A stretch of 64,000 bases of DNA from positions 5,001 to 69,000 of the forward strand of contig JAZLBT010000026.1 of assembly GCA_045613865.1 (NCBI GenBank), written 5' to 3'. Numbering within the stretch: the first letter of the stretch is position 1; every line of letters begins with the position of its first letter. Position numbers and translations under genes: made by a program. The notes beneath the pieces are model-generated. The model was given only the letters and a program-made list of their open reading frames with translations, was not told the origin of the DNA and made no database searches. This stretch comes from Candidatus Spyradenecus sp. (GTDB lineage Bacteria; Verrucomicrobiota; Kiritimatiellia; RFP12; DVOR01). Positions 1 through 15,939 of the stretch are shown here, piece by piece.

Positions 1-30
1 CGCCTCATTACTTGGATTTTAGGATTCTAA
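1..30 (+). CDS. 3' end of a small hydrophobic peptide (..RLITWILGF*), paralog of 316-426; truncated by window edge
   Basis: cgcctcattacttgg at 1-15 recurs exactly at 382-396 inside the 316-426 ORF, in the same reading (RLITW). Confidence 0.55.
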   Translation, partial: RLITWILGF

Positions 31-65
31 AAAATGAATGGCTAAAAAGATTCGCGATTACAATT

Positions 66-185
66 AAAAAAAACGCCCTCGGCTTCAGGGCGAGGGCGTT
101 CTAAAAGGCAGGTGATACCACTGTTATCTCGTGGCTCTACTGACCGAGGCGTTCATGAGGTTAGTCCCCAGTAGTTACCGCCAGT
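66..185 (-). ncRNA. candidate small structured RNA 'A'
   Basis: Directly downstream of the 187-221 promoter cassette. Internal stems TGGC/GCCA and CTACTG/CAGTAG. Ends in hairpin aacgccctcg..cgagggcgtt plus T8 on the minus strand. Confidence 0.55.
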
Positions 186-186
186 A

Positions 187-221
187 AGAATACTAAATCA
201 CAAACGATGAATGTTTGTCAA
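187..221 (-). promoter_or_regulatory. repeated sigma70-like promoter cassette, copy 1 (TTGACA-N15-TGn-TTTAGT)
   Basis: 187-228 is 40/42 identical to 5318-5359; its reverse complement matches 2204-2238. Confidence 0.7.
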
Positions 222-315
222 TGAAAAAGAGTCAAAAAAGCACGAAAAATGAAACTTGTGACGGTTTTTAGTCCTTGTCGACCTTTTATCTCGCAGCCTA
301 AGAGGAATAAATCCA

Positions 316-426
316 ATGAATAATCTGACGAAACAATGTTTGCGTGATATGGCCTCGGCCCTTGCAGGAATTTTCTTTTATCGCCTCATTACTTGGTTAT
401 TGGGTGCTAACGGCATTTGGACCTAA
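316..426 (+). CDS. 36-aa hydrophobic peptide, Ldr/Fst type I toxin-like (MNNLTKQCLRDMASALAGIFFYRLITWLLGANGIWT)
   Basis: AGAGGA RBS at 301-306; one hydrophobic segment; D-x-A..LAGI..W pattern resembles Ldr; a second copy ends at 30. Confidence 0.55.
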   Translation: MNNLTKQCLRDMASALAGIFFYRLITWLLGANGIWT

Positions 427-429
427 TAA

Positions 430-540
430 CAAAAAATAAGGAGTTTGTGATGTTCGTTATGCAGACCTACCTGGACATAACGCCTACTGCTTCATGCTTA
501 CTGTTCATGCGGCAATGAAGAGTTTCACAAACTCTGTACT
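430..540 (-). ncRNA. candidate small structured RNA 'B' (multi-stem junction)
   Basis: Closing stem gagtttgtga/tcacaaactc encloses cgttatg/cataacg and cttcat/atgaag stems. TTGACA on minus at 567-572; T-run on minus at 431-436. Confidence 0.5.
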
Positions 541-624
541 CATAACATCTCACATCTCACGCTTATTGTCAAGGAGAAAAGGCTAAAATGTTTAAAATAC
601 GAATAAAAGAGTGCGATTGTTTGC

Positions 625-700
625 TTGGCACACTTTTTGACCTGCCTAAATGATTTTAAAGAATTTCAGAAATAGACTACGATTGATTGAAAAAGTGAAA
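625..700 (+). repeat. degenerate partial copy of the outer end of the 39.5/41.6-kb inverted-repeat element
   Basis: ttggc..actttttgacctgcctaaa..gaaatag..tacga..gaaaaagtgaaa aligns with 5502-5570 and 41791-41858. Confidence 0.55.
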
Positions 701-894
701 CCAATAAGAAGCCCTTTACATCGAGGTGCCTTAGTTTCGTACTTTTCCAGAGGAACTTCTACCTTACAAACACAATTATTAAACCATAACAATAAAAGAA
801 ATATCGAAGAGGTGAATTGAATCATTGACATGAGATTGAAGAAGTGTTACTGTTAGAGGGAGTTTTCTCGGTGGATGTTATAGGACGTGGATTA

Positions 895-1761
895 ATGAAA
901 AAAACAACAAAAACCTCTCAGAAAGTTGCCAAACTGATTCAACATGCGCGTACCGGAAATGTTGAGGCACAGTATAACGTGGCATTAAAATATGTTTATG
1001 GTGATGGTGTACCAAAAAATCTACGCTTGGCAAGAAAGTATTATCGTCTGGCTGCATGTCAGGGACACATGTATGCGCAAAATAATCTAGGCGCGATGTA
1101 TCGTATGGGGGAAGGTGGAAAAATTGATTATCTAGAGGCGTTACGATGGTTTAAATTGGCTGCTGCACAAGGTGATGAATACGCCTATTCTTCGTTGGGG
1201 TGCATGTATGAAGAAGGATTAGGCGTTCGTAAAAATTATCGTAAGGCGGCTGAGTATTATCACTTTGCAGCGAACCGAGGGGATACTAGCGCTCAAAATG
1301 CATTGGGGTTAATGTATGAATCTGGAAAAGGTGTCCCGAAAGATTACCGAGAAGCCGCACGCCTGTATGAACTCGCGGCAGAGCAAGGCTCTGTCTACGC
1401 CAAAAACAACCTCGCAATTTTGTATAACCATGGACGAGGGGTTGAAAAAGATGTAGAAAAAGCAATTGCGCTCTACTATGCTTGCGCGAGTGAGGGACTT
1501 GCCGAAGCGGAATGTAACTTGGCGATATTGTACCTAAAGGGGAAATGTGTCCCTCGCGACGTAATGATAGCCGTTGATTTCTTTACGCGGGCAGCGAAAA
1601 GAGGACTGGCCGAGGCGCAATTTAGATTAGCTAAAATGTATACCCAAGGTCGCGGTGTTTCGCGTGACTTACGAAAGGCAATCCCACTCTATCGTCGTGC
1701 TGCAAGAAGTGGTCGAAAGGCTGCGCAAAATTGGCTTACAAAACATGGTTATACGTGGTAA
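895..1761 (+). CDS. Sel1-like repeat (TPR) protein
   Basis: About 7 repeats of AQxNLGxMYxxGxGVxxDyxxAxxxYxxAAxQG; ATG 895 preferred to GTG 844. Confidence 0.9.
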   Translation: MKKTTKTSQKVAKLIQHARTGNVEAQYNVALKYVYGDGVPKNLRLARKYYRLAACQGHMYAQNNLGAMYRMGEGGKIDYLEALRWFKLAAAQGDEYAYSSLGCMYEEGLGVRKNYRKAAEYYHFAANRGDTSAQNALGLMYESGKGVPKDYREAARLYELAAEQGSVYAKNNLAILYNHGRGVEKDVEKAIALYYACASEGLAEAECNLAILYLKGKCVPRDVMIAVDFFTRAAKRGLAEAQFRLAKMYTQGRGVSRDLRKAIPLYRRAARSGRKAAQNWLTKHGYTW

Positions 1762-1771
1762 AGTCCAATGA

Positions 1772-1905
1772 AATTAAAATGAGCCTACCCTTTCGGATGA
1801 GCTCGGGGGCGTAAAACACTCTTCAGTAAACTTGGCGTTGGAACCGAAGCAGACACCCTCCATATCTGAACATCTAGACTTGCATAAATGGAGAACTGAT
1901 TACCG
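1772..1905 (-). ncRNA. candidate small structured RNA 'C'
   Basis: Minus promoter TTGCTT(1931-1936)-17-GATACT(1908-1913). Stems ctccat/atggag and cttcgg/ctgaag; terminal hairpin gagctcatccgaaagggtaggctc plus T-run. Confidence 0.5.
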
Positions 1906-1945
1906 TCAGTATCGCATAACCTGCTTTTAGAAGCAATCTTTTTCA

Positions 1946-1980
1946 TTGACATATCATCTGATTTTGTGCTCTAATGTTCT
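1946..1980 (+). promoter_or_regulatory. promoter cassette, diverged copy (TTGACA-N15-TGc-TCTAAT)
   Basis: Same 35-nt length, same upstream tttttca, and TTGTG..TAATGTTCT end as the other copies. Confidence 0.6.
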
Positions 1981-2188
1981 TGTTTTCAAAGCGAAGGCTC
2001 CTCCAAGGAAGTAAGTTTGAGGCACTTGGAAGTAGACGGTGGCCGGAAATAACAGGTGCAGGTTCGCCTGCAAGTGCGAAAGATCCGAAAGGTGAAGCCC
2101 GGCGGTCGACATTAGTAAGTCGCGCCAATGTCATCCTCCGTTTTGTTCTCTATTTGGCCACCACGCGAACGATAGCGGGTGGCCTTTT
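1981..2188 (+). ncRNA. candidate structured RNA 'D' (paralog of F)
   Basis: 22-nt exact match aaagatccgaaaggtgaagccc (2079-2100) to the reverse complement of 4746-4767; terminator ggccacc..ggtggcc-tttt at 2156-2188. Confidence 0.65.
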
Positions 2189-2203
2189 CCAAAGCGATAA
2201 TAC

Positions 2204-2238
2204 TTGATAAACATTCATCGTTTGTGGTTTACTGTTCT
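2204..2238 (+). promoter_or_regulatory. promoter cassette copy (TTGATA-N15-TGg-TTTACT)
   Basis: 32/35 identical to the reverse complement of 5318-5352. Confidence 0.7.
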
Positions 2239-2239
2239 T

Positions 2240-2407
2240 CGCAAAACGGAGATAGAGACCATCCTCTGAGCCGTGAGTTGCCCGATGCCAGATGGTGAGG
2301 CATTTTGGTAGGCTTCTTTTGAAGCCGAGGCGCTTCCAAAAGTTTGCGGGTGAACGTGTGCGCTTTTGGATTAAACCTGGGGATGTTCACCAGCCCCGCG
2401 GTTTTTT
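2240..2407 (+). ncRNA. candidate structured RNA 'E' (paralog of G)
   Basis: AAACGGAGAT..CCGTGAGTT..TGCGGG shared with G; stems ccaaaag/cttttgg and ggcttc/gaagcc; terminator hairpin plus T6 at 2373-2407. Confidence 0.6.
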
Positions 2408-2428
2408 ACACTCGCCGGTTTTTCGTCA

Positions 2429-2457
2429 TTGACATTTTTCGCACATTGGGGTATTTT
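2429..2457 (+). promoter_or_regulatory. sigma70-like promoter of the ankyrin gene
   Basis: TTGACA-17-TATTTT, about 55 nt upstream of ATG 2511. Confidence 0.55.
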
Positions 2458-2510
2458 ATAAATATCAATTCTTTTAACCCCGTGATACGTCTCCGTGTCG
2501 AGACGTTTTT

Positions 2511-4394
2511 ATGACTCAAAAAACAATTCGTTTCGTTGGTGTCTCGCGCCTCAATCAGGCTGTTTTACCCTTTTTCTTTAACCGAGCCATTTCGCTAACG
2601 CCTTCCGTGCGTCGGCGATTGTTCAAATATGCCGATGAGGCCACAGCGGTGGTGCGCGCCTACTACCGCCGGTCTATCTTTCCGCATCACTACGGACGAG
2701 ATCCCGAGAATTGGGAGGTCTCTCCTAGTGCACTAGCGGCCTACGCCTTCTTTCTACGTGGCCTCGCGCGCGGACGCATCTTTCGTTATGGTGCCATTTT
2801 CCACTCGGTCGGTATTGCGGCAGCAAGTTTAAATCACGTTGAGATTTTACAACTCCTCATTCACGAGGGAATTCCCTTGGATTTACTCCATGAAGGGGGT
2901 GACACTGTGCTTGCCACCGCGATTCGCTACCATCACGAACCTTTGGCCCACGCCCTCATGGATGCATTCCCACGTTTTATAAGCCACAAATATGCCCCGA
3001 GTGCGATGTATGCCTGTATCTTTTCAGGCACTATTCCACTCTTTTTTGACATGGTTGAGCGCGGTTTCTCTATTACCTTTTTCATGGGTTTCAAAGATTG
3101 GATTGGCACCCCCTTGAGCGCCGCTGTGCGTCGCGGACGTCATACCATCACACGCTACCTGCTTAAACACGCCTTCACTGAGGCCAATATTCTCATGCCC
3201 AAGACCTTTGAGTATGACCCGTTGCACGCTTACTTCAAATGGACTCTCTTTAAAGAAGCCATCTGTCACCAAAACCGAGAAGTCCTTGACCATCTCAAAG
3301 CGCACGGTTGGAACCCGCCAGCAAAAATAATTGGGGCCTTCTGCAGAGAAACAGGCGTCCTCGACTCCCTTACGCGCCTCAAATTCACCGAAACCGTCTA
3401 TCCCGACTTACCCTTCCGCAAACACATCCAAGCGATGTGCATGGATGAAGATAACTGTTGGTTCATTGACGATGACATTCTGCGGTATTACAACCTTCCA
3501 CTCAATGAAGATGAGGAGGACTTAACGCGTGTAAAGGCCGAGCCACACGATTGGCGCACAGATATCCCCTCTACCATGGAGGAAATTGGGGAATGTCTTG
3601 GCGAACGCCCCGAAAACATCCTGCGCCTCATCCCACGCATTCGTGAACAACTGCGCACCTATTATCAAAAAGCAGAGTTTTCCCATCACGCAGCACGTGC
3701 CTCGGTCTATGCCCTCTGCCTCGCACAACACTCTGCCGCACCCCTCTTTACTCACGAAGAATTACAAGACGCCGTGCGTCAAAACTCGGAGTTTAAGTAC
3801 TACGCTACGTCTTATCACGAACGTATCCTCGGCGTTAAGATTTTCAAAAAAAATTATGAGCGCGTCAGAAAAATTGATCATATCGTAGCACTACAAGGGA
3901 AAGACTTGCAATCCTTTCTTGATCAAAGCGATGAAGCCCTTGAAAAATATCAGACATGTTATGGCATTCCCATCATTCGTTACATCGCAGAAAAATCCAC
4001 CGTAGAAGCCCTTGAAATGTGGATGGAACGTGGTTTCTCAATTTGCGCCTGCGAAGAAATTGAATCCTGGCATCCCACACACTATGCTAACCCAGAAATT
4101 CTTGACTACTACTTCACCCACGTCGGCATGCACTACCGCACTAGATGCAATGAATACGCAGACACCCTCGCCTTCTCCATCCGTGGCGATGACGCAAGAT
4201 GCGTCAAAATCTTTGTCAAACATGGCTACCCCCTCAATCGTCGCCTCTGCGATCACGACTACCCGCTCGCCTATGCCTTCTATGAAGGCGCCGAAAAAAT
4301 GACGCATGCCCTCTACGATGTTGGCGCCAAAATGTTGGACCGAAAAGGTCGAAAAATGAACCTACCCCCATGGTTTAAACCGCTTCGCGGTTGA
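2511..4394 (+). CDS. ankyrin-repeat protein
   Basis: GDTVLATAIRYHHEPL, GTPLSAAVRRGR, DYPLAYAFYEGA-type ankyrin motifs. Confidence 0.75.
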   Translation: MTQKTIRFVGVSRLNQAVLPFFFNRAISLTPSVRRRLFKYADEATAVVRAYYRRSIFPHHYGRDPENWEVSPSALAAYAFFLRGLARGRIFRYGAIFHSVGIAAASLNHVEILQLLIHEGIPLDLLHEGGDTVLATAIRYHHEPLAHALMDAFPRFISHKYAPSAMYACIFSGTIPLFFDMVERGFSITFFMGFKDWIGTPLSAAVRRGRHTITRYLLKHAFTEANILMPKTFEYDPLHAYFKWTLFKEAICHQNREVLDHLKAHGWNPPAKIIGAFCRETGVLDSLTRLKFTETVYPDLPFRKHIQAMCMDEDNCWFIDDDILRYYNLPLNEDEEDLTRVKAEPHDWRTDIPSTMEEIGECLGERPENILRLIPRIREQLRTYYQKAEFSHHAARASVYALCLAQHSAAPLFTHEELQDAVRQNSEFKYYATSYHERILGVKIFKKNYERVRKIDHIVALQGKDLQSFLDQSDEALEKYQTCYGIPIIRYIAEKSTVEALEMWMERGFSICACEEIESWHPTHYANPEILDYYFTHVGMHYRTRCNEYADTLAFSIRGDDARCVKIFVKHGYPLNRRLCDHDYPLAYAFYEGAEKMTHALYDVGAKMLDRKGRKMNLPPWFKPLRG

Positions 4395-4731
4395 TAACTC
4401 GCTCGGCCCCATCGATATTGTTTGGGGTATTCCAGGAGACGCCAAGAATGATTACGCAGGCGGTTACGGCATTTCTCATACACTGGCTAAGCACGGAAAG
4501 GAAGCATTAGAACAAGCTCCTCTTCTTCTAGCTTATGGAAAATATTATAAGGATGTTTGGAGAAAAAACGGCTGGCTGGTTATCAAAGGTCACTGGGTCG
4601 CCGCACTTAACGAAGATAAAAACAGTAATATTTATCTTTCTACGATTTACAAATCAATAGAAAAGGCGGCTCGCTACTCGCGAAGCCGCCAAATCGAAAA
4701 CAAAGTAGGAGATGATGGCGCGACTCTCTAG
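4390..4731 (+). pseudogene. start-less PBECR (Barnase/EndoU/ColicinE5-D/RelE-like) nuclease fragment
   Basis: Frame open 4360-4731 with no ATG; reads LGPIDIVWG..GGYGISHTLAKH..IYLSTIYK, matching my recollection of the PBECR3 DIDLVWG..GYGLxHIxxKH motif; absent from the ORF track. Confidence 0.6.
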
Positions 4732-4734
4732 TGG

Positions 4735-4866
4735 ACGACTTTCCAGGGCTTCACCTTTCGGATCTTTTGTACCCACGCCGTAGCTAATGGTATACTACTT
4801 CCTGGCACCGCTACGCATTATAGCCCTCACAGCTGTAGTCTATAATGGGAGCTCCTCTTTGAACAT
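4735..4866 (-). ncRNA. candidate structured RNA 'F', convergent with the nuclease fragment (paralog of D)
   Basis: TTGACT at 4894-4899 on minus. Shares TTCAAAG, GCTCC, GTAG(A)CGGTG, GGAARTA and the 22-nt block with D. Confidence 0.65.
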
Positions 4867-5008
4867 TTATAGTGTTCCAAATCTTAAACCAAAAGTCAAG
4901 CATTTTTATCGTTTTGGAAAGAGCCATTTAAAGGCAATGTAAAGCAAGCCAACAATATTGATTGTGGTTGTGCTAAGGAGTGTAATTTGCACAGGTTCTA
5001 CTAAATGA

Positions 5009-5167
5009 CTAACTCCCCACGCACAAAGTAGTAATGTTGTCATTAAATCAACCAGTGAAAAGAATAGCGTAATGGTCTTTGTGGATAATAATGGCGAAGT
5101 ACAAGAAGCCTTTGACGTCTTCACAAAAACGACAAAAGACATTCGTAGAAGTTTAAAGGAAAAATGA
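5009..5167 (+). pseudogene. possible second C-terminal nuclease-like fragment (..NSVMVFVDNNGEVQEAFDVFTKTTKDIRRSLKEK*)
   Basis: 52 open codons, beta-hairpin-like pattern, stop abuts RNA G as the PBECR fragment abuts F; no diagnostic motif. Confidence 0.3.
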
Positions 5168-5316
5168 GTCGGTGCTGGCGGCAAGACCCACACACCGCAA
5201 TGTTCTCGTTATGCGCGTGCCCGCACAAGAACAAGGCAAAACCCTCTAGTTCATAGGGTGGCGTAGCCCAGGGAGGAACTCACGGAGCAAATGTACGCCC
5301 ACATCTCCGTTTCGTT
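5160..5316 (-). ncRNA. candidate structured RNA 'G' (paralog of E)
   Basis: Directly downstream of promoter cassette 5318-5352; atctccgttt (5303-5312) and aactcacgg (5277-5285) match E; terminal hairpin cggtg..caccg at 5170-5197. Confidence 0.6.
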
Positions 5317-5317
5317 G

Positions 5318-5352
5318 AGAATATTAAACCACAAACGATGAATGTTTGTCAA
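5318..5352 (-). promoter_or_regulatory. promoter cassette copy (TTGACA-N15-TGg-TTTAAT)
   Basis: Near-identical to 187-221 and 2204-2238. Confidence 0.7.
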
Positions 5353-5390
5353 TGAAAAAAGGTAAAAAATAGAAGGGGAAAACCGAATGA

Positions 5391-5501
5391 GTGTTTTTTA
5401 TCTTTGTCTACTATTTTTTGTGCGCCTTCCGCATGGGCTTCGGCTTTATGCTGGGCGGTATCTTAACAGTCAAATGTCTTGAGTTATTTTACGAATCTTA
5501 A
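5391..5501 (+). CDS. 36-aa hydrophobic peptide (MFFIFVYYFLCAFRMGFGFMLGGILTVKCLELFYES)
   Basis: GTG start, GAAGGGG at 5372-5378; same length and same side of the promoter cassette as 316-426. Confidence 0.35.
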   Translation: MFFIFVYYFLCAFRMGFGFMLGGILTVKCLELFYES

Positions 5502-5570
5502 TTGGCCGGGGACTTTTTTGACCTGCTTAAATTGTTTTAGGAAATAGTACGAAGGGCCGAAAAAGTGAAA
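5502..5570 (+). repeat. partial copy of the inverted-repeat element outer end
   Basis: ttggccggggactttt..gacct..aaatagtacgaagggccgaa.aagtgaa matches 41791-41858 and the reverse complement of 39459-39526. Confidence 0.8.
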
Positions 5571-5740
5571 TAGAAAGGATATTTTATCAAAATCTTAACA
5601 TTTTCGTTCGCCTATTTCACCCCATCATTGAGCGGTTTATTTTCTTGGTTTTAAGGTGTCAAATGATAACAATAAAAAGTAGATGCAATACGCCTCATAA
5701 CTGAAGGTTGCATCTACTTTACGGACATGTAATTTTAGGA

Positions 5741-6118
5741 TTAAAGTGCGTACGTTGAGATCAATTGGCAAATTTCGATCACATTTGTACGCCCAGTGAA
5801 TTGAAACTTCACTTTACCGACCGCAGAGACGTAAACTTCCAACTCGGAATCCATATCAAATGTGCCTGCCGTTTCAACGGAAAAGGTTGTGATTTTGCTA
5901 TAGGGAATTGACGTATAATCTGTCTTCTTTCCCGTAATGCCTTGTACATTGATTGCAATAATTCGCTTGTTGGTGAAGACTACACCATCACGAATGGTTT
6001 TATAGGTTCCAACAATCTCTTCACCAGCAACTAAGAATGGCGCAACCTTCTTCGCGAAAACATCGTTCTCGACTTGTTTCATTCGAGAGAAAAATCCCTT
6101 GCTATTAAAGTCTATCAT
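5741..6118 (-). CDS. bacterial PH-domain protein (bPH_1/YjqA-like)
   Basis: RDGVVFTNKRII..QGITGKK..SIPYSKI..FSVETAGTFDMDSEL. Confidence 0.9.
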   Translation of the reverse strand: MIDFNSKGFFSRMKQVENDVFAKKVAPFLVAGEEIVGTYKTIRDGVVFTNKRIIAINVQGITGKKTDYTSIPYSKITTFSVETAGTFDMDSELEVYVSAVGKVKFQFTGRTNVIEICQLISTYAL

Positions 6119-6543
6119 TTAAACATCCTCTAGCCTGTTTATTTAAACACCAAACGTAGCAGACAGGCAATAGACAACCACTTTTGGTGCTAACGAAGAC
6201 AATGGGAATCGTTGACAATTGCAAAAGGATTTAAACACGCAATGTGTATGCCCTCAAAGGTGACGTTTGTCGCTAATTTCCTAGATTTCCGCTAGCAGTT
6301 TATACGCATCACTGCAAAGAGAGAAATGTCATAACGCTCTCACAGCTTAGTTTTAGTGTAGCACATTCAAGCGTTTGCAGCAAACAAAAAAATCTTCTTC
6401 CACGTTTCTACAATTGCATTGTCGATTGTATCATGAAAATGGAGTTTTATTGGCACTTTTATATTTATATGTTAATATCAAGTAGCGAGGTGTATCGGTT
6501 TGTGCTATAATGGTCGTGTTTCTTCACGAAAGGTTTTTAGGTT

Positions 6544-7461
6544 ATGGTTTATGATATTGTGATTTTAGGCAGTGGTCCTGCAGGGTGCACAGCGGCGATT
6601 TATGCAGCGCGTGCAGGGTTTAAGCCATTGGTTCTCGAGGGGATGCAACCTGGCGGACAGTTGACGCAGACAACGGATATTGAGAATTTCCCTGGCTTTG
6701 AAAAGGGTATTAATGGCTATGATTTGGTTGTGACGATGCGTCAGCAGGCGGAACGTTTTGGCGCAGTTTTTGAAATGGATGAGTGTATCGGGGCAGATTT
6801 TTCTGGTGAGGTTAAACGCCTCGAGACGATGGTGAATGGAACGATTGAAGCGCGTGTTGTGATTTTGGCAACGGGGGCTTCGGCGCGTTGGTTGGGGCTT
6901 GAGAGTGAGAAGCGGTTGATGGGGCATGGCGTTTCGGCATGCGCGACGTGTGATGGTGCCTTTTTTAAGGGAATGGATGTCGCTGTCAATGGCGGTGGTG
7001 ATACGGCGTGTGAAGACGCGTTGTATTTATCGAAGTTGTGTAATAAGGTGACGTTGATTCATCGCCGTGATACGTTGCGCGCGAGCAAGGTGATGGCTGA
7101 TCGCGTTCTTTCTACACCGAATATTGAGATGGCGTGGAATTCAACGGTGGTTGAGGTGCTTGATCCTGCTCAGGGTGAAGTTTCGGCCGTGCGTTTGCGG
7201 AGTACTGTGGATGGTTCTGAGCGTCTTTTGCCCGTGCGTGCATTGTTTGTCGCCATTGGTCATACGCCGAATACGAAGTTTTTAGAAGGCGCACTTGATT
7301 TGGATGAACATGGGTATATTGTGACGGATGGTGTACATACGAGTGCAAAGGGTGTTTTTGCAGCGGGTGATGCACAGGATCCGTATTACAAGCAGGCAAT
7401 TATTGCGGCGGGTTCGGGTGCCGTTGCAGCACTCGAGGCTGAACGTTATTTGTTGCATTGA
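6544..7461 (+). CDS. trxB: thioredoxin-disulfide reductase
   Basis: GSGPAG, GGQL, CATCDG, GGGDTA, HRR. Confidence 0.97.
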   Translation: MVYDIVILGSGPAGCTAAIYAARAGFKPLVLEGMQPGGQLTQTTDIENFPGFEKGINGYDLVVTMRQQAERFGAVFEMDECIGADFSGEVKRLETMVNGTIEARVVILATGASARWLGLESEKRLMGHGVSACATCDGAFFKGMDVAVNGGGDTACEDALYLSKLCNKVTLIHRRDTLRASKVMADRVLSTPNIEMAWNSTVVEVLDPAQGEVSAVRLRSTVDGSERLLPVRALFVAIGHTPNTKFLEGALDLDEHGYIVTDGVHTSAKGVFAAGDAQDPYYKQAIIAAGSGAVAALEAERYLLH

Positions 7462-7541: not shown

Positions 7542-8930
7542 ATGATCGGTCTTGCGGATAGTGTTGTTTTTACAGGGGTGAGCGGTTGCTTTGGTCATGC
7601 CGCTTCACCGCGTGCGTTTTGGAAGGCGTTGTTACGTAAGCAGTCGGCGTTTGTTCCTTTGCCCGTAGCGGGTGATGGACATACGGCCGATGAGTTGTTT
7701 CAGGGGCATCCTTTGCCGGAGATGATTGCGGCGCTCGGGGAGAATTTCGCCTGCCAGTCGGATTGGTTATCGTTGCCACCGGACTTGGGGATTGGGGATA
7801 ATCCTGATTTTTGGTTTTCCGCGCAGTTGTTGTTTGACGCGTTGGAAGATGCGTGTCTCTCACCGAATTCCCCCTCAACCGATCGTATTGCGCTTTTTAT
7901 GGGGTATGATGCGACCTTTAATCCCGCTTCGGTGAATTGGTTGTGGCATGCAAATGTGATTGCCCAGGTGGTGAGTACGTTGCAACGATTCTTCCCGAAT
8001 GCAACGCATGCTCAGATGGGAGCGATTCGTGAAAATTTGATTGAGACGTTGCCTCTGTTGAAGCCTCGTCACCTTCACCATGCACGCGGGGATGGTATTG
8101 TACGTGCGTTGGCGCAGACCTTCCGGATGTGTGATTCGGTTTATCAGTGTACGGCAGGTGAAGCTTCCGTTTTTGCAGGGTTGGATGCAGCAAGTAATGC
8201 CTTGCGTTTAGGCCAGTGTGATGTTGCCGTCGTATTGGTCTTGCAGCCACCGATTTCTCAGACGCAATTAGTGGGCGAATCATGTTTGTTGCCATTCTCG
8301 CATCATCGCACATTGCAACCTTTCACAAAAGCAGCAGATGGTACGTTGCCGGGTGAAGGCGGCGCGGCATTTGTTTTGCGGCGTTTGTCGGATGCGCGAA
8401 AGGGTGCTCAGCGAATTTATGCGAAGTTGCACTGCAGTGCTTTGCTCGCAGGTATGACGCCCGAAGAAGGCGGTTTAGAGCAAGCGCTCGAACGGTGTTT
8501 GCATCGCGCATTACGTCGTTTACCCAATGGTTTCCGTGATATTGATTATTGGGAAATGAATGCTTCTGGCGTGCCAGAAGAAGATGCGGCAGAAGAGGCA
8601 TTATTGAATCGTGTGACAGCAAATCGTGGTGCCAATATTCCACTTTTGGCGTTGGGTTCTGCGAAGACGTCGTTTGGCCATGCCTTGACAGCGGCGGGTG
8701 CTTTGGGGCTCTTAAAGGGTTTGCTGGCGATGAGTCATCGTATTTTGCCCCCATCGATTACGCCGATGGATGAGTCATTCCGTTTATGTAAGCCGGAGCA
8801 CTCGTATTATTGGGTGCAGGAGGCGCGTCCGTGGATTGCATCGTCGATGCGCCCACGACGTCTTGCGGTGTCGACGTTGTCGCGTGCTGGTCGCGCGGGT
8901 GCGGCGATTCTTGAGGAGGTGTCTGAATGA
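7542..8930 (+). CDS. PKS ketosynthase-like protein with degenerate active site (KS0/CLF-like)
   Basis: ADGTLPGEGG, LGSAKTSFGH, PRRLAVS; catalytic Cys region reads AGEAS and HGTGT reads NASGV. Confidence 0.8.
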   Translation: MIGLADSVVFTGVSGCFGHAASPRAFWKALLRKQSAFVPLPVAGDGHTADELFQGHPLPEMIAALGENFACQSDWLSLPPDLGIGDNPDFWFSAQLLFDALEDACLSPNSPSTDRIALFMGYDATFNPASVNWLWHANVIAQVVSTLQRFFPNATHAQMGAIRENLIETLPLLKPRHLHHARGDGIVRALAQTFRMCDSVYQCTAGEASVFAGLDAASNALRLGQCDVAVVLVLQPPISQTQLVGESCLLPFSHHRTLQPFTKAADGTLPGEGGAAFVLRRLSDARKGAQRIYAKLHCSALLAGMTPEEGGLEQALERCLHRALRRLPNGFRDIDYWEMNASGVPEEDAAEEALLNRVTANRGANIPLLALGSAKTSFGHALTAAGALGLLKGLLAMSHRILPPSITPMDESFRLCKPEHSYYWVQEARPWIASSMRPRRLAVSTLSRAGRAGAAILEEVSE

Positions 8931-15609: not shown

Positions 15610-15684
15610 TGGCACCCCCAAGGAGAGTCGAACTCCTCTTACAGGCATGAAAAGCCCGTGTCCTAACCGATAGACGATGGGGGC
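15610..15684 (-). tRNA. tRNA-Glu(TTC)
   Basis: Cloverleaf, anticodon TTC, GTTCGA, encoded CCA. Confidence 0.97.
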
Positions 15685-15690
15685 ACATAC

Positions 15691-15766
<76 letters not shown>

Positions 15767-15785
15767 TTACGACCGCTTGCGGTTA

Positions 15786-15860
15786 TGGCACCCCCAAGGA
15801 GAGTCGAACTCCTCTTACAGGCATGAAAAGCCCGTGTCCTAACCGATAGACGATGGGGGC
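15786..15860 (-). tRNA. tRNA-Glu(TTC), identical second copy
   Basis: Same sequence as 15610-15684. Confidence 0.97.
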
Positions 15861-15863
15861 AAC

Positions 15864-15939
15864 TGGTGGCAAGGGTCGGGATCGAACCGACGACACGCGA
15901 ATTTTCAGTCCGCTGCTCTACCAACTGAGCTACCTCGCC
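15864..15939 (-). tRNA. tRNA-Phe(GAA), one-base variant
   Basis: As 15691-15766 but with a G-U pair in the anticodon stem. Confidence 0.97.

Follow-up and report, generated by a model that had tools for sequence, protein, structure and literature searches.

The window analysed here is a stretch of 64,000 nucleotides from Candidatus Spyradenecus sp., a member of the Verrucomicrobiota (assembly GCA_045613865.1, contig JAZLBT010000026.1, positions 5,001 to 69,000; G000:C26:5001-69000 in our numbering), whose assembly amounts to 1.91 Mb in 34 contigs with a completeness of 94.5%. The beginning of the window carries an array of small non-coding blocks, named A to G, and an eighth block, H, lies directly upstream of window base 1. 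Homologs of A, D, F and G recur in related genomes beside genes that run toward them and encode PBECR-type domains. We regard it as probable that the RNAs are cognate partners, most likely antidotes, of PBECR RNase toxins of Mu-like phages, and that the orphans among them have been kept after decay of the toxin genes.

A sequence-only reading of this DNA had counted seven RNA blocks, and all seven were found again at or near the positions it gave, through covariance models, homologs and direct reading of the sequence. Reading of positions 1-6000 places a -35/-10-like site upstream of each of the seven, and most of them terminate in a hairpin followed by a T-run. The blocks had been described as unlike known RNA families, which agrees with our search of Rfam (release 15): at the gathering threshold, the whole window returned only four tRNAs at 15.6-15.9 kb and none of the blocks, and below threshold (E<=10) the best match in positions 1-6500 was a MicA-like 3' end of D, with 28.5 bits against 41 and an E-value of 0.28. 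As generic promoter and terminator scans were not enriched over shuffled sequences (14 sites, with 10.6 being expected, and 8 versus 7.3), the case for these RNAs rests on comparison across genomes and not on motifs. That comparison supports the blocks as putative structured RNAs, independently promoted and outside the families of Rfam.

Convergent toxin-type genes beside the RNA homologs

Positions 1-5700 of the window were used as a DNA query against 40 relatives, 24 from the same genus and 16 from outside it. Matches were obtained in 16 of the 24 same-genus genomes, covering A, B, D, F and G with 72-89% identity, together with a common promoter and a dispersed repeat. Outside the genus, one of the 16 genomes matched, and only with a 42-nt piece of a Sel1 gene. 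In the window's own genome, the RNA blocks have no further copies outside this locus. Three covariance models were also used, namely R1 for the A family, R2 for the D/F family (built from a MAFFT alignment) and R3, a widened A model.

An open reading frame (ORF) on the opposite strand recurs beside the RNA homologs; it is directed toward the RNA and terminates at its 3' end or within it. An intact convergent ORF of the PBECR type was present at 17 of the 36 RNA loci examined in the genus, its stop codon abutting the RNA 3' end or overlapping it by up to 77 nt. RNA A of the window (65-185, minus strand) is about 120 nt long, is built as a three-way junction with an intrinsic terminator (74-92) and scores 124.5 bits with R1, a model that retrieved 14 copies of the A family in 9 of 28 genus genomes and no match in 123 genomes from other genera of the order. 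Among the 17 A-family loci (a count that leaves out one further copy in genome G002), seven have an intact partner (for the five measured, stop and RNA end are 0-7 nt apart), and A partners share the motif GGHGLAHILAKH...KGEN* or a variant of it (5 of the first 14 loci). Two loci, L202 and L203, were found through RNA model R3 first, and their neighbours then matched the toxin profile described below with hmmsearch E-values of 2e-31 and 3e-31; the third new A copy retrieved by R3 has no partner matching that profile. RNA A itself is an orphan, adjoined by no PBECR frame and just by a fragment of a small ORF.

In the D/F family, R2 identified 10 strong copies in 9 genomes. Two of them are in the window: RNA D (1983-2188, plus strand, 206 nt; 191.7 bits), which is 88% identical to the copy of genome G003, and RNA F (4661-4865, minus strand, 205 nt; 204.8 bits), 88% identical to the copy of G002. 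The limits first proposed for F, 4735-4866, were too short by this model. An intact partner ORF accompanies four of the ten loci, overlapping the RNA by 53-77 nt. As to the remaining loci, F of the window faces a start-less frame, D and the copy of genome G007 face the last codons only, and three face nothing. RNA G (5160-5316, minus strand, about 155 nt) represents a second family, with seven homologous loci in six other genomes at 73-77% identity. Here, 5 of 8 loci have an intact ORF, either 137 aa long or part of a larger fusion, whose stop follows 4-8 nt after the end of the RNA; one of the other three has an N-terminally degraded partner, the window copy has a pseudogene, whose stop codon is overlapped by the T-run of G, and one has none.

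RNA H (G000:C26:4527-4674, plus strand) has the same build as the other blocks and is convergent to an apparently intact ORF of 100 aa (about C26:4643-4942, minus strand), with an overlap of about 40 nt; a DNA search of 27 other genus genomes gave no homolog of it. RNA B (430-543, minus strand, about 114 nt) has pairing 5' and 3' ends followed by a T-run, and a fold z-score of -3.36; upstream of it, a -35 element TTGACA is located at 567-572 and the -10 element is poor. B has a single homolog, in genome G019, with a promoter of the family type and compensatory changes in the closing and inner stems. Altogether, the proposed link between these RNAs and toxin genes stands for the A, D/F, G and H families, and does not extend to B, whose homolog shows no toxin link, nor to C and E, for which the DNA search of the same 27 genomes gave no homologs.

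Searching by the toxin protein extended the association beyond the genus, where an A-like RNA is convergent to, and overlaps, a toxin ORF in two records. One is a distant Verrucomicrobiota metagenome-assembled genome (R1 28.5 bits, E 5.8e-5) and the other a viral contig of 38.5 kb in IMG/VR (R1 17.5 bits). The two RNAs differ by a compensatory change in the closing stem P1, GGCGG/CUGCC against GGUAG/CUACC, and the viral copy has a promoter, TTGCAT-17-TATAGT, from which transcription would begin at the conserved 5' end. When IMG/VR was scanned with exact patterns of the A and G cores, 0 matches were obtained, and a loose D/F pattern gave 119 stretches there, with none of the 80 listed being confirmed by R2. 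In a phylum sample of 151 genomes, R3 gave four borderline matches outside the genus, all resembling a bare terminator and lacking a PBECR frame.

Structure and covariation of the RNA families

RNA D folds into a long closing stem with inner hairpins carrying UUCG and GAAA loops, followed by a terminator. The D/F model contains 45 pairs, 23 of which are changed on both sides among the copies. Pairing is kept in 93.4% of cells, compared with 38-51% when the partners are slid against each other, and 0 of 500 shuffles reach 93.4%; orphan and toxin-linked copies are alike in this respect, with 38-44 of the 45 cells paired. For the A family, the 17 sequences have 97.3% of cells paired against 37-49% with slid partners, a figure that is favoured by the fitting of the widened alignment to the model, and 25 of 33 pairs are changed on both sides. 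In the G family, a variable inner stem is formed by five different complementary arm pairs among seven sequences.

Run with filters off, R2 also matched H with 21.9 bits (E 6.7e-7) and A with 21.6 bits, so that A, D, F and H form one covarying RNA superfamily; B and C gave no match, and E gave a weak one (2316-2475, E 0.014). The paralogy of D and F, already suspected from the letters, is well borne out, as the two match at 73% along 114 nt, show 13 double-compensatory pairs and have their 3' halves in common. The corresponding claim for E and G holds for the promoter and the first 45 nt or so, which include a common 5' hairpin, and fails for the remainder, which is unlike in the alignment and unique to E; this relation is read from a sequence alignment.

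Other kinds of non-coding element were considered for these blocks and rejected. Riboswitches or leaders were set aside, since every block has its own terminator and no gene follows on the same strand; ends of insertion sequences and omega-RNAs, since there is neither a transposase nor terminal repeats; and retron or CRISPR RNAs, since reverse transcriptase and repeats are missing.

Identity of the partner proteins

Comparison with Pfam assigned the 100-aa partner of H to PBECR1 (PF18809, cut-off 27.6 bits) with 36.2 bits, and the partner of the D copy in genome G003 with 39 bits. In an alignment of ten partners, a Lys-His pair in the first helix is invariant and a late Thr nearly so, and these residues are kept in the partners of F and H at the window's locus; the His is invariant among 27 partner-type sequences. 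Lys-His together with Thr corresponds to the pattern described for active PBECR domains (Iyer et al. 2017, PMC5512222). The toxins had earlier been likened to the ToxN/AbiQ type, an assignment that does not hold, as Pfam finds only PBECR1 or PBECR2 domains, both attributed to the BECR fold.

A profile made from the ten partners collected 1493 cluster representatives at E<=0.001 in 1.84 billion proteins, comprising solo proteins of about 100-140 aa, the C-termini of proteins of about 700 aa and domains of giant polyvalent proteins. Moreover, a Portal_Mu domain is fused ahead of PBECR1 at loci L042 and L048 and in the database proteins P0002 and P0008. Such fusions belong to relatives only: the window's own assembly contains no portal, and the portal half of the L042 query had no match in it by tblastn. 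At L029, the RNA-toxin module is inserted between the terminase, portal and MuF-position genes, and at L200 the module is followed by a putative Mu-type protease gene, as read from sequence.

The AlphaFold model of the H partner (pLDDT 87.9) has the colicin D tRNase domain as its top structural match (Z 5.6, root-mean-square deviation 3.0 over 76 residues), followed by RelE, HigB, BrnT and CDI toxins (those of contact-dependent inhibition) with Z of 5.0-5.5 (VIA). Foldseek against the Protein Data Bank (PDB) gave nothing at E<=0.001 for this model, and a PDB sequence search with the toxin profile gave 0 matches at E<=1. Overall, these comparisons support the partners as putative PBECR-type (colicin D/E5/RelE-like) RNase domains of phage origin.

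Erosion of the toxin genes and orphan RNA arrays

The toxin genes at this locus are eroded, as had been suspected: A has none, D keeps a remnant, the partner of F has lost its start and that of G is a pseudogene. D was previously taken to have no partner, and in fact retains at 2115-2228 (minus strand) the last ~38 codons of a PBECR1 gene, ending in ...KATRYRSRGGQIENKTEDDIGATY* and antisense to the 3' part of D; in a tblastn comparison, this remnant matches the G003 partner (residues 154-191) with 68% identity along 38 aa. The PBECR1-like frame facing F (4360-4731, plus strand) has 123 open codons and no ATG, GTG or TTG; it begins within the end of the ankyrin gene, is 47% identical to the G003 partner (tblastn), and its end contains, in antisense, the 3' ~71 nt of F with the terminator. 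The PBECR2-like pseudogene facing G (4910-5167, plus strand) is missing some 48 N-terminal residues and has two in-frame stops; its last 31 codons form the ORF 5072-5167, and tblastn aligns it at 40% over 89 aa. When six partner proteins were compared with the whole assembly by tblastn, matches were confined to this locus.

The sole complete RNA-toxin module of the locus, H with its 100-aa PBECR1 ORF, is situated outside the window (C26:4527-4942; L044:963-1378). On the minus strand, the A promoter and the A RNA with its terminator are followed, some 120 nt further on, by the H-partner ORF, so that the intact toxin gene could be read through from A. In total, the locus has eight RNA genes and at most one intact toxin gene.

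Orphan-RNA arrays in three further genomes of the genus are in keeping with the idea that antitoxin-like RNAs accumulate. Genome G007 (contig C6) has three tandem RNAs beside a Sel1-repeat gene, G002 (C21) has three RNAs within 600 nt, and in G019 (C29) an F-like, a G-like and a B-like copy are found less than 7 kb apart. A Sel1-repeat gene (844-1761) is likewise found inside the array of the window, and the Sel1 gene of the G007 array (L030:8328-10142) is 39% identical to it; it may be part of a shared island or simply cargo. The Sel1 and ankyrin genes between the RNA blocks have no DNA match in the 24 genomes sampled within the genus.

Variants of the locus were also seen in public sequencing runs, which contain at most 0.16 of the words sampled from it; contigs from these runs come from other samples with at least 90% likeness, and they document variants and not transcription. 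One DNA contig joins position 1952 to 2221, cassette D being missing, and an RNA-library contig joins 603 to 5159, bringing B beside G. In another public contig, 68 nt within C (1808-1877) are replaced by 66 other letters. The joints of the metagenome contigs fall in the repeated promoters.

Proposed function and alternative explanations

Since the RNA genes are physically linked to the toxin genes in a fixed register, and intact RNA genes are kept where the toxin is lost, we infer an antidote role, and with it transcription of the RNAs, toxicity of the partners, neutralisation and a benefit from the orphans. The array would consist of small structured RNA genes of 115-210 nt, each with a sigma-70-type promoter and an intrinsic terminator. 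The toxin gene points toward the RNA gene, abutting it in the A and G types or overlapping its 3' end by 40-77 nt in the D/F/H type, and the RNA would keep the RNase harmless in the producing cell. For the A and G types, the RNA would bind the protein through its conserved junction and loops; for the D/F/H types, antisense pairing to the 3' end of the toxin mRNA may contribute. When the body of A was compared with the final 500 nt of the sequence coding for the toxin, 18, 5 and 12 of 30 shuffles were equally complementary, which argues against a pure antisense action for the A type. As A and G share with their toxin genes only the terminator or stop region, and A shows no excess of complementarity, action on the protein is favoured. 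After loss of the phage, the toxin genes would have been deleted or broken and the RNA genes kept with their promoters, and the array would then supply orphan antidotes to related toxins that phages or prophages bring in.

Several observations weigh against this explanation. Part of the partners fall short of the family thresholds: with 17-23 bits for five A partners and 22.7 bits for the F partner of the window, these remain below the PBECR1 cut-off, and the G partners match PBECR2 (PF18810, cut-off 27.1) below threshold in 3 of 5 cases, the best with 21.1 bits and an E-value of 1.4e-4. Besides, hhalign finds no relation between the G partners and the PBECR1 alignment (probability 0.15%), and the G-partner model, with a pLDDT of 74.9, has a weak best match to a CDI toxin (Z 4.9). 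Even for the H partner, Z values of 5-5.6 are modest and within the range that the structure tool calls common. RNA and toxin subtypes cluster identically over 13 pairs (Mantel r 0.285, with 20 of 2000 permutations as high), a result that is to be expected from physical linkage alone. The 19 of 36 RNA loci without an adjoining intact toxin gene fit orphans and, equally, decaying prophage debris; C and E are without homologs and hence have no tie to toxins. The sole RNA-library run contributes one contig, over B and G, that may be DNA, and the small membrane ORFs located beside many RNA genes could be the real partners.

The rival that we take most seriously, while judging it unlikely, is that these are phage regulatory or structural RNAs and not antidotes, such as antisense or terminator elements setting the level of the portal or late-operon mRNA, or RNAs travelling with the portal, and that the array is debris left by prophage decay and by recombination at the common promoter. 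Complete modules do occur inside Mu-type head-gene blocks, between terminase, portal, MuF or protease genes, there is a 3' overlap between the D/F/H RNAs and the portal/toxin mRNA, and the recombination joints mentioned above are located in repeated promoters. Nevertheless, the RNA is always found at the toxin domain, be it solo, fused to a portal or placed before MuF or protease genes, and its large conserved loops and junctions would be needless for a terminator or for plain antisense. Debris is also difficult to reconcile with toxin ORFs being gone while the promoter, full structure and terminator of the RNA are intact, and with orphan arrays in four genomes, some of them beside ordinary chromosomal genes.

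Less probable still is that the RNAs are type I antitoxins of the adjoining small hydrophobic peptides, the nuclease genes being bystanders. Many RNA start sites have, at a distance of 30-150 nt, the start of a small membrane ORF with a single helix and 31-62 aa (at 316-426 and 5387-5482 in the window, and at L042, L033, L057, L061, L060 and L070), B is tail-to-tail with such an ORF both here and in G019, and the 36-aa ORF type of the window recurs in genome G041 beside a D/F RNA. These ORFs, however, belong to several unrelated sequence types, one type can occur beside different RNA families, and none is present at L029b and L200, where MuF or protease genes come immediately next; the RNA and these ORFs are arranged divergently and do not overlap, whereas the PBECR ORF keeps its fixed tail-to-tail register. 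We give very little credence to a fourth explanation, by which the RNA is a cofactor, guide or substrate that activates the RNase instead of inhibiting it. The tight co-inheritance of RNA type and toxin type would suit it, as would the suggestion by Iyer et al. (2017, PMC5512222) that certain PBECR domains are inactive and bind RNA. Yet the catalytic Lys-His and Thr are retained in the partners, and it is hard to see why hosts would keep arrays of a helper RNA of a phage weapon in the absence of the toxin genes.

The antidote explanation can be taken one step further, to an RNA immunity island in which each orphan structured RNA would bind and block one subtype of PBECR RNase, brought by Mu-like phages on the portal of their virions and injected. 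We advance this only tentatively, as a possibility open to considerable doubt. If it were true, a gut bacterium would be gathering RNA-type immunity genes to counter phage effectors, in the way that Bacteroidales gather orphan immunity proteins to counter secreted toxins, and PBECR toxins in general would be restrained by cognate RNAs and not by immunity proteins.

Comparison with known systems

The sequence-only reading had interpreted the locus in terms of toxin-antitoxin (TA) systems, types I and III. Its view of structured RNAs associated with RNase toxins that are eroding is retained here, and its type III/ToxN framing, together with several details, is not. Type III systems (ToxIN, CptIN, TenpIN) resemble the present arrangement in pairing an endoribonuclease toxin with a non-coding RNA antidote, here a putative one; their RNA is thought to act on the protein, and they have links with phages and phage defence (PMC8860590, PMC13682666). 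Type III toxins, however, have the ToxN/AbiQ fold and not the PBECR/BECR fold, and their RNAs are short tandem repeats upstream of the toxin in the same operon, whereas here a single unit of 115-210 nt with its own promoter points toward the toxin gene. No tandem repeats were found in positions 1-7000, and the one type-III-like order, A RNA, terminator and H-partner ORF on the minus strand, is due to chance. As judged from gene layout, the RNAs do not appear to belong to type III as defined.

The 3'-overlapping type I systems of Bacillus subtilis prophages (yonT/SR6, bsrG/SR4) likewise have convergent genes on prophages, with transcripts running into each other at the 3' ends; a 100-nt antisense RNA over the 3' end of the toxin gene is described for SR6 (PMC5848175). 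In addition, RalR/RalA is cited as an example of a nuclease with a small-RNA antitoxin (PMC5576092). The type I toxins are small membrane peptides, unlike the RNase domains of at least 100 aa, often fused to a portal, encountered here. The antisense overlap with the toxin ORF amounts to 53-77 nt in D/F and about 40 nt in H, while the A and G RNAs merely abut it or share a terminator or stop codon, and the conserved multi-stem body is outside the overlap. The system thus fits type I in part only.

PBECR domains have been reported both solo and fused to Portal_Mu (Iyer et al. 2017, PMC5512222), as is the case here. In the covered parts of that work and of the study on MuF polymorphic toxins by Jamet et al. 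(2017, PMC5576092), such toxins are accompanied by protein immunity ORFs or by none, and by no RNA partner. Polymorphic toxin-immunity pairs have the immunity ORF right downstream of the toxin; here, the 115-220 nt after the toxin stop are occupied by the convergent RNA gene and its promoter. From an ecological point of view, gut Bacteroidales have AID clusters, described as strain-variable arrays of orphan immunity genes (bioRxiv 10.1101/471110). By analogy, the present array would also be a cluster of antidote genes without cognate toxins that varies between strains, with the difference that AID antidotes are proteins directed against type VI secretion effectors and these would be RNAs directed against phage RNases. 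We see the closest architectures in 3'-overlapping prophage systems and nuclease-small RNA pairs, and the closest ecological analogue in the orphan-immunity arrays of Bacteroidales.

Polyvalent proteins of phages and plasmids commonly contain PBECR domains, and how the producing cell can tolerate them is left unexplained in the literature covered. In the passages covered on PBECR, BECR, RNA antitoxins and type III systems, no RNA antidote for PBECR toxins was found. A cognate structured RNA would represent a new control of polymorphic and polyvalent toxins, would add a TA architecture fitting neither type I nor type III, and would give orphan-immunity arrays their first counterpart among RNAs. 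A direct test is feasible, as a 100-aa toxin gene is situated beside an RNA gene of about 150 nt in the same genome, with seven further RNAs available as non-cognate controls.

Promoters, remaining candidates and other features

A common 35-nt promoter precedes A, E and G and has a 6-bp palindrome, ACAAAC-N7-GTTTGT, between its -35 and -10 elements. For A (192-221, minus strand), these elements are TTGACA and TTTAGT with 18 nt between them; for E (2204-2233, plus strand), TTGATA...TTTACT; and for G (5323-5351, minus strand), TTGACA and TTTAAT spaced by 17 nt. The palindrome may be the operator of a common repressor. The promoter of D (1946-1975, plus strand; TTGACA, 18 nt, TCTAAT) resembles this type, and the promoter region of F (4869-4899, minus strand) has TTGACT as its -35 element. 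The RNA promoters of relatives carry a different conserved spacer, TTGCGTTCTCCTTGGGTTTGTGGTTTACT.

C and E are candidates only, as they are without homologs and have weak fold z-scores. Candidate C (about 1772-1901, minus strand; z -1.53) ends in a terminator hairpin at 1772-1805 and has a promoter-like site, TTGCTT-17-GATACT, at 1908-1936 (minus strand). Candidate E (2241-2407, plus strand, 167 nt; z -1.54) ends in a terminator with T6.

Three small hydrophobic ORFs lie on the plus strand of the array. The ORF at 316-426 encodes 36 aa, has a ribosome-binding site, is divergent from A and tail-to-tail with B; its counterpart in G041, 83% identical, is located beside the D/F-type RNA and a portal-PBECR1 gene. 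Positions 1-30 contain the 3' end of a truncated copy, MASALAGIFFYRLITWILGF*, which starts upstream of the window and is tail-to-tail with A; this fragment repeats 349-404 with 95% identity and was also found with the G041 small ORF by tblastn. Finally, the hydrophobic and basic ORF at 5387-5482 encodes 31 aa, is divergent from G and has an alternative frame at 5391-5501. Upstream of the window, an ORF at G000:C26:4320-4480 has a signal-peptide-like start, MKKVLTLLL, and is broken off by an in-frame TGA once nine codons have been read, perhaps as a pseudogene or through an error of assembly.

A dispersed repeat of about 105 nt, assigned to no strand, is present at 599-704, with a partial copy at 5502-5578, and stands outside the RNA system; it occurs at nine places in the window's genome with 79-100% identity and in many copies in genus relatives, and contains a promoter-like stretch, TTGACC...AAGAAT. 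Beyond the array, a thioredoxin-reductase-like gene (6544-7461) directly precedes a 462-aa ORF (7542-8930) that resembles ketoacyl synthases of the polyketide or fatty-acid type, both as read from their translations, and the four tRNA genes form a cluster at 15613-15939 on the minus strand.

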